Assembly (NCBI RefSeq): GCF_988242995.1
Contig: NZ_OZ547043.1
DNA: 64,000 nucleotides
Strand: one strand, 5' to 3'
Under the pieces are notes generated by a model that ran no database searches, was not told the DNA's origin, and saw only the letters and a list, made by a program, of their open reading frames with translations. Below are positions 33,884-34,528 of the stretch, piece after piece. Numbering within the stretch: the stretch's first letter is position 1; each line of letters starts with the position of its first letter. A program made the translations under genes and the position numbers.

Positions 33884-34336
33884 GTGTGATTAACGCTCGC
33901 CTGATTACTATCAAGCAACAAGACAATTAAGAGAGAACATTATGAATACTGGCAAAAATGCCCAAACAGGGGCAGGTTTTCGTTCAACCATAAAAAATAT
34001 GGCTGATGTTATTACTCAGTACAAACCTTACGAACGAATTAATTGAACTAATCGCACTTCCGTTTTAAATGGAAACGAACAATCGCATAGATTAAACGAC
34101 AAAATAAATATGCTTTTTACAAACAAAATAAAAGCGACCGCAGAGGGTCGCCAGAGAACATGTATTAAACTTGAATGCATCGCCAACAATGCCACATTTA
34201 CGGCTGGTGGGCAATGTGATTTGTGTGGTGGGCACACCTTCAACACATCCGACCACATGAGCCGGAAAACGGGATATACTCGCCTAATCCCTTATAAAAC
34301 GGGGCTCGGGATTGCTACCCCGCTGAAGCAAAAGGC

Positions 34337-34362
34337 GACACATGACGCGCCAGCGTCTTTTT
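34337..34362 (+). terminator. Candidate Rho-independent terminator in the island leader region
   Basis: gacgc-gcca-gcgtc hairpin followed by ttttttg. Confidence 0.45.
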
Positions 34363-34528
34363 TGTTGTCTGTACACACGCACACCTTATCAATGGTGGGC
34401 TGTATGGGGCTGACTTCGGTCAGGCTGGTTTCCTTTTGCGCCAGTTGTAGCAACTCCGTACAGTCCACCGCCAGCGAGTTTGCTACCTCCGGCGGTGGTT
34501 ATATTCCAACGCAAAAGGAGGCTGCCAA

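Follow-up and report, generated by a model that had tools for sequence, protein, structure and literature searches.

The region between the alpA-like gene and the Icd-like open reading frame (ORF) of a small Escherichia coli island is, very probably, an RNA immunity cassette of the P4/P1 type that keeps the replication operon of the island silent. We analysed it within a stretch of 64,000 nucleotides, referred to as the window, which comes from an E. coli chromosome and has the order yejM, tRNA-Pro(GGG), an island of ~9 kb that ends at ~41000, and yejO. In the cassette, an IsrK/seqA-like leader RNA is followed by a C4/CI-type antisense RNA and by the target of the latter over the Shine-Dalgarno sequence (SD) of the Icd-like ORF (Table 1), and this reading is underlain by RNA family matches, folds, complementarities and covariation. 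An earlier note on this DNA had suggested a small RNA or an attenuator controlling the operon that starts at 34529, and had pointed to the RNA-based immunity of P4-type satellites as an analogy. Both ideas proved sound, the first with the finding of the leader RNA, the C4/CI RNA and its target, the second with Rfam matches, box complementarity and covariation that reveal a P4/P1-type module. The C4 RNA and the box complementarities were absent from that note, and the repressor RNA is located downstream of the hairpin that it had flagged. The cassette is an already described kind of phage and satellite RNA switch, present here as a new copy in an island resembling a phage-inducible chromosomal island (PICI).

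Table 1. Positions in the window of the cassette, its boxes and the neighbouring features of the island.
Feature	Position	Strand	Description
tRNA-Pro (proL)	31901-31977		adjoins yejM; att site
Integrase gene	32184-33428		island
alpA-like HTH gene	33692-33883	+	Pfam Phage_AlpA, 28 bits
34-codon micro-ORF	33942-34046	+	from the ORF list; weak SD-like AGAGAG at 33930-33935
198-aa eta/'Ash'-like frame	34110-34706	+	spans the promoter, the two RNA genes and, in the +1 frame, the icd-like gene
Conserved noncoding element of ~110 nt	~34119-34231	-	core (TTGCCCACCAGCCGCAAATGTGGCATTGTTGG) at ~34186-34224, variable linker, intrinsic terminator
Putative PLE-like promoter	34252-34280	+	-35 ACCACA at 34252-57, 17-bp spacer, -10 TATACT at 34275-80
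IsrK/seqA-like leader RNA	34287-34363	+	Rfam RF01394, 47.0 bits vs gathering score 50, E=1e-7
Box a1	34312-34318	+	UUGCUAC in hairpin loop of the IsrK-like RNA; 7/7 complement of a'
Box b1	34328-34335	+	GCAAAAGG; 8/8 complement of b'
Intrinsic terminator	34344-34363	+	ends the IsrK-like RNA
C4/CI-type antisense RNA	34388-34475	+	Rfam RF01695, 76.0 bits vs 45, E=9e-14, full length (1-87)
Box b'	34431-34440	+	UCCUUUUGCG, loop of hairpin 2
Box a'	34447-34453	+	GUAGCAA, single-stranded linker
Box a2	34480-34486	+	UUGCUAC; 7/7 complement of a'
c2	34491-34498	+	complementary to C4 3' strand 34465-34472
Box b2	34510-34519	+	CGCAAAAGGA; 10/10 complement of b'; overlaps the SD
SD of the Icd-like ORF	34515-34521	+	AAGGAGG
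Icd-like ORF	34529-34717	+	62 aa; NCBIfam NF033153, 62.7 bits; PGAP annotation
DUF927 primase-like protein gene	35209-37344		island replication operon

The Icd-like ORF is the first gene of the operon and would be the one that is regulated; it is followed by orf61 and by genes for DUF4222, DUF927 primase-like, SSB, ProQ/FinO and PerC proteins and for two hypothetical proteins. The alpA-like gene is the counterpart of P4 orf88/vis, which precedes the P4 immunity region, the layout of P4 being orf88, then the cI/eta region, then alpha. The replication protein of the island is, by Pfam, DUF927 and not of the P4 alpha family, and neither annotation nor Pfam revealed sid, psu, delta or epsilon genes in the island. 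It thereby falls outside the P4-like satellites sensu Moura de Sousa & Rocha (int, psu, delta, sid, alpA, epsilon, alpha), which carry the hijacking genes sid, psu and delta and an alpha-type primase. Its integrase and alpA genes next to a tRNA attachment site, followed by an immunity-RNA zone and then a primase/SSB zone, are the arrangement of Gram-negative PICIs, and the layout is best read as that of a Gram-negative PICI-like element rather than of a strict P4-like satellite. In the island annotation no packaging or late genes are recognisable, and the island could be defective. As far as we checked, this tRNA-Pro (proL) island was not found among those described in PMC10111431. Upstream of alpA, at 33444-33489, two tandem copies of ATTGGTTCCTA are followed by an inverted copy, forming an 18-20-bp palindrome that also scored as terminator-like and is likely to be a protein-binding site, either Int arm-type or for AlpA.

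The fold of the C4/CI-type RNA (-41 kcal/mol) has two hairpins and a closing stem of 16 bp. The IsrK/seqA-like RNA scores below the Rfam gathering score in the window, and its match is not listed in gathering mode; this shortfall arises because its 5' hairpin is weakened, with a T-C mismatch relative to the homologues in L005 and L019. Close relatives do exceed the gathering score (52.9 bits in L019, 61.6 in L003), and the homologues at 16 other loci score 49-66 bits. In position, the RNA has what is expected of IsrK/seqA, namely a terminator at its end, a putative promoter ahead of it and a C4 RNA starting 24 nt downstream. The earlier note had taken a hairpin and T-run in this region for an intrinsic terminator, and indeed the stem-loop GACGC-GCCA-GCGTC (34344-34357) and the following TTTTTTGTTG end this RNA; terminator-like sites are frequent in the 2-kb stretch around it (8, vs 2.5+-1.5 in shuffles). 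Regarding the promoter, a TAnnnT hexamer is found at -12 to -7 from the IsrK 5' end in 15/16 loci, including P4 upstream of seqA, and points to a PLE-like promoter in the window, with a predicted transcription start of the leader at ~34287 and a poor -35 (3/6 match).

We used 301 bp of the module (34260-34560) as a BLAST query against 5426 complete E. coli genomes. At least partial matches were present in 1848 of these, and at least 80% of the query was covered in 1336, with up to seven places per genome and 442 places that were plasmid-borne. The tandem of isrK and then C4 was found in all 15 loci of a comparison set made up of 14 diverse module copies and phage P4 (L016), three P1-like plasmids among them, and also in L019, which was compared as well. 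In P4, C4 (8507..8420, 74.9 bits) and isrK (8692..8615, 60.8 bits) are both inside the old 'cI' ORF. The analysis of covariance and structure over homologous loci that the earlier note had proposed speaks clearly for the C4 fold: over 16 sequences, 99.5% of the cells are paired and 15 of the 27 pairs show double, compensatory changes, a result reached by none of 500 shuffles.

The boxes of the window correspond to known elements, a'/b', a1/b1 and a2/b2 being those of phage P1 c4 and the equivalents of seqB, seqA and seqC of P4. Among the loci, a1 and b1 are kept at fixed offsets of 25 and 40, and a C4 RNA matches its cognate target at 15.7 of 17 box positions as against 9.3 of 17 for non-cognate ones. 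The a':a2 helix is 100% paired, with compensatory changes in 6/7 pairs. The b':b2 duplex (-16.5 kcal/mol) spans the SD, which the earlier note had called strong and which stands 7 nt ahead of the ATG; the energies of b':b2 and a':a2 sum to -25.6, compared to -14.6+-2.6 for shuffled targets. A third conserved complementarity is that of CCACCGCC, from the 3' strand of the closing stem of C4 and its tail, to GGCGGTGG, which is located between a2 and b2. This pairing of the C4 3' strand with c2 places a2 in a hairpin loop and is 95% paired over 15 loci, with 4/8 pairs compensatory; it could belong to a precursor conformation, act as a processing signal or provide a third contact.

The box specificities of the window are a mosaic. 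Its a box (UUGCUAC) is identical in Stx/Oslovirus phages, e.g. in Shigella phage Ss-VASD (L002), and its b box (GCAAAAGG) in the P1-like plasmids L011 and L014; therefore, a partial cross-talk between immunity RNAs of satellites and phages is conceivable. In the same Shigella phage, positions 4041-4124 match Rfam sRNA-Xcc1 (79.6 bits vs a gathering score of 53), between a Rha-type regulator and an anti-repressor gene and downstream of the IsrK-C4 module.

In P1 and P4, the C4/CI RNA is cut from the leader by RNase P and accumulates as a stable RNA of ~77 nt, which pairs over the first ribosome-binding site (RBS), so that translation is blocked and the operon is ended prematurely at the Rho-dependent timm; P4 seqA is needed to establish immunity, and in P1 icd and ant are coupled in immI. 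For the window we infer the promoter, the processing, the termination by Rho and the direction of the IsrK effect, and propose the following course. The leader would be transcribed constitutively from the promoter just upstream of 34287, and most transcripts would stop at the terminator, giving an IsrK/seqA-like RNA of ~77 nt with a1 and b1. Read-through transcripts would carry the C4/CI RNA, the 3' end of which has an acceptor-like stem followed by GCCA (NCCA in 16/16 loci), hints of processing by RNase P. In cis or in trans, the exposed b' and a' would then bind b2 and a2 of the mRNA leader; with the SD of the Icd-like ORF buried in the b':b2 duplex, translation would be blocked, and the untranslated transcript would be ended by Rho, as in P1 and P4, silencing the downstream primase and SSB genes. 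The a1 and b1 boxes of the short leader RNA may compete for the boxes of C4. Finally, ribosomes on transcripts from the alpA promoter might override the block by way of the open eta/Ash frame, as described for P4 eta; since in the window a TGA divides this frame, and icd is in a different one, the P4 override may not operate here.

Several parts of this scheme have precedents. IsrK has been equated with seqA and C4 with CI in P4-like prophages (PMC3632133), and Rfam matches to C4 and isrK have been reported from Gram-negative PICIs, where they lie between alpA and the replication zone, along with a model for P4 eta and kil (PMC10111431). In Gifsy-1, translation of the read-through mRNA is turned on when the short terminated IsrK RNA binds to it (PMC4825925).

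The same stretch of DNA can also be read as protein-coding. The 198-aa ORF is where the earlier note had placed it, with the hairpin inside it, and could be a genuine Ash/Eta 'Bro-network' protein gene, the conservation of the region then reflecting the protein and not the RNAs. It matches Pfam PF10554 (Phage_ASH) at 44.1 bits against a cut-off of 26, the frame (taken relative to C4) is open through the module in 14/16 loci, the downstream start codon is in phase with it in 11, and both P4 Eta and Gifsy-1 orf45 have been reported to be translated (PMC10111431, PMC4825925). However, the match (aa 56-147, nt 34275-34550) coincides exactly with the stretch from the promoter through the IsrK-like RNA, C4 and the target to the first icd codons, and PF10554 also matches the c4 RNA gene of P1-like plasmids, through small PGAP-called ORFs over it. 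In phage P4, where we compared 8168-8584 with 7888-8175, it matches the obsolete 'cI' ORF over the CI RNA, seqC and the start of kil (aa 22-85) and not epsilon, which is PF25738.

The variation among loci follows RNA pairing. In the C4 part, codon-position entropy is flat (0.73/0.65/0.71), i.e. there is no codon periodicity, and amino-acid identity in the eta-like frame (0.53) is not above that in the other frames (0.48 and 0.55); the first 18 codons of the downstream ORFs, which we used as the codon-position control, are heterogeneous and not a clean positive control. The spacing from isrK to C4 differs among loci by non-multiples of three, PGAP flags 34110-34490 as an incomplete 'ash family protein' pseudogene, with no RNA gene annotated there in RefSeq, and Gifsy-1 orf45 is itself conserved in nucleotides and not in amino acids (PMC4825925). 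The lack of codon periodicity and an identity no better than in other frames suggest that selection acts on the RNA, and perhaps on an open frame, rather than on a protein, and we consider a genuine Ash protein gene improbable. The earlier view of the ORF as non-genic was right in that there is no constraint at the amino-acid level, but went too far if taken to mean simple noise: the counterpart frame of eta/Phage_ASH is kept open in 14/16 loci, and P4 eta and Gifsy-1 orf45 are translated (PMC10111431, PMC4825925).

In P4, the eta frame has kil nested within it and is translated only from the upstream late promoter; its translation prevents termination, and it is this translation, rather than the product, that matters (PMC10111431). 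A frame of the eta kind would be a long ORF that contains the first small gene in the same frame and that starts at the alpA homologue or is coupled to it, which is not what the window has. There, the SD and the ATG are 1 nt closer together, which makes the frame +1 relative to icd, and it is interrupted by a TGA at 34044-34046, 58 nt separating it from the alpA stop codon. A zinc ribbon at the N-terminus of the 198-aa ORF (CxxxxC...CxxC; a weak rubrerythrin-like match, E=0.18) was considered and rejected, the cysteines being replaced by His, Arg or Ser in homologous segments; most changes in the homologues of this N-terminal segment are nonsynonymous.

It might also be that the island is decaying and that the cassette in it has become an inactive relic, its sequences homologous to IsrK and C4 but no longer regulating. 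Such decay would fit the IsrK score under the gathering score with its weakened 5' stem, the weak -35, the eta-like frame that a TGA breaks and that is out of register with icd, and the size of the island, just ~9 kb with no identifiable late or packaging genes in it. Yet the box copies match perfectly or nearly so (7/7, 7/7, 10/10 and 8/8), the C4 fold is intact, and the ORFs downstream of the module are intact in both the ORF list and the PGAP annotation. Moreover, the boxes have kept changing in coordination between close relatives, which requires ongoing selection: among the islands of the window, L003 and L019, with flanks ~94% identical, 39% of the box sites differ as against 16% of the other sites (p=7e-4), and the boxes change in concert in all three copies. 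Such concerted change appears to be the signature of a selected immunity specificity, and a relic is in our judgement quite improbable beside a functional P4/P1-type immunity cassette.

The micro-ORF described in the earlier note exists and encodes the same 34-aa peptide, although one base away from where it had been placed, and the plausible RBS claimed for it amounts to a weak SD-like sequence. It shares the frame of the 198-aa ORF, a single TGA (34044-34046) standing between the two, and is probably a vestige of the 5' part of the eta-like frame. Its region is present only in ~65 near-identical islands; the micro-ORF is intact in L003 and L019, with 4 of 7 changes nonsynonymous and a variation no lower than that of the flanks. 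Since it is located upstream of the module promoter, it would not be a leader peptide. Classical attenuation, with translation of the micro-ORF controlling the terminator, has in its favour the weak SD-like sequence and a position upstream of a terminator on the same strand, but we rejected it as extremely improbable: the micro-ORF ends 298 nt ahead of the terminator and precedes the leader promoter, which is conserved in position, no alternative pairing links the micro-ORF to the terminator, its substitutions carry no sign of coding constraint, and the ORF is missing from the homologous modules of P4, P1-like plasmids and Stx phages.

Upstream of the cassette, the minus strand carries a conserved noncoding element of ~110 nt. 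Its terminator has a stem at 34133-34152 and a T-run extending to ~34122, and the stem variants are compensatory (GGCGACC/GGTCGCC vs GGCCACC/GGTGGCC); an outer stem of the core was dropped as a candidate, showing no convincing covariation in a sample biased by the search pattern. The element was matched in 740 E. coli genomes, mostly at 60-90% identity, and over 120 contigs of satellite size in IMG/VR also carry it (other copies are, e.g., L037:2125-2253 and L017:1494-1622). There is no C4 nearby in 110/120 of the IMG/VR loci, and in most of the listed loci the element is found just 3' of a leftward small ORF, mostly encoding a basic protein of 59-66 aa, with a YlcI/YnfO-type ribbon-helix-helix (RHH) gene further upstream in that leftward operon in L017, L018, L020 and L037. 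This operon is absent from the window island, which has the IsrK-C4 cassette in its place. The element is independent of the C4 module and is probably an orphaned 3' end of the leftward operon. It has no Rfam match at E<=1, and a full-text search with its core sequence returned no paper.

The four islands L017, L018, L020 and L037 can be regarded as sisters of the window island, with the plan int-alpA ... Icd-like-DUF4222-primase but without IsrK/C4, and with the leftward RHH (YlcI/YnfO) gene and the small basic ORF between alpA and icd. From these gene orders, the difference looks like a swap of an RNA-based for a protein-based control module. Two of these islands without C4 have weak matches to SymR-like antisense RNAs (L017:2139-2211 (-) and L018:1878-1950 (-); 33-35 bits vs a gathering score of 61, E~0.002), directly upstream of the Icd-like gene and antisense to it; the matches may be due to chance or mark a different antisense regulator of icd.

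Two further ideas concern this upstream stretch, and we regard both as rather unlikely. The 110-nt element might be an undescribed satellite sRNA or 3'-UTR regulator. [quoted passage not shown] The island also encodes a ProQ/FinO-family RNA-binding protein at 38042-38578 (PGAP annotation of an identical genome), which might act as a chaperone of the IsrK/C4 RNAs or of the 110-nt element.

Among known systems, the P4 immunity region (PLE-seqA-CI-seqC-kil/eta) shares with the window the order of alpA homologue, promoter, IsrK/seqA-like RNA, C4/CI RNA, RBS target, small ORFs and primase, as well as the box logic and a long open frame through the RNAs. The two differ in the spacer between the IsrK-like RNA and C4 (107 nt in P4, 24 nt in the window) and in the box sequences, which implies a different immunity specificity. 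Furthermore, the eta-like frame of the window, unlike that of P4, is out of frame with the first ORF and interrupted by the TGA, and the window has a DUF927-type replication protein and not alpha, with no sid, psu, delta or epsilon. The immI region of P1 and P7 (c4-icd-ant) likewise has a C4 RNA with a' and b', a1/b1 upstream and a2/b2 downstream of it, and b2 over the RBS of an Icd-like gene; the P1-like plasmids L008, L011 and L014, which carry c4-icd-ant, have the same module. Its downstream cargo is the Ant antirepressor, whereas that of the window is a replication operon, and the P1-like a boxes differ from the window a box.

The isrK-orf45-anrP region of Gifsy-1 also combines a short terminated IsrK RNA with a translationally silent read-through mRNA (PMC4825925). 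Going by the positions stated in that paper and not by an alignment, the orf45 starts (AUGs at nt 107 and 119) would fall in the 5' strand of C4 (CAATGGTGGGCTGTATGG), and the orf45 frame would be that of the 198-aa ORF of the window. The Gifsy-1 cargo, however, is an antirepressor, which the short IsrK RNA has been shown to activate (Hershko-Shalev et al. 2016, PMC4825925). The 'Bro zone' Gram-negative PICIs (PMC10111431) have the same island plan as the window, with int and AlpA, C4/isrK matches within a Phage_ASH ORF and a primase/SSB zone; they have a late zone, and the window island has no identifiable one.

The cassette leaves the understanding of the mechanism unchanged, and its main value is for annotation and interpretation. 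RefSeq labels an RNA cassette as an 'ash family protein' pseudogene and does the same over c4 of P1-like plasmids, and these annotations call for correction. The PF10554 family follows the translated IsrK-C4 module. A survey of P4-like satellites used PF10554 as the 'epsilon (Ash)' marker (PMC8628076), and as this family matches the ORF over the CI RNA and not epsilon, the marker may track the RNA immunity cassette. For the biology of these elements, the PICI-like island has a layer of RNA repressor between alpA and its replication genes, and the a and b boxes, which turn over fast and in concert among near-identical islands, provide a clean natural example of diversifying immunity specificity.
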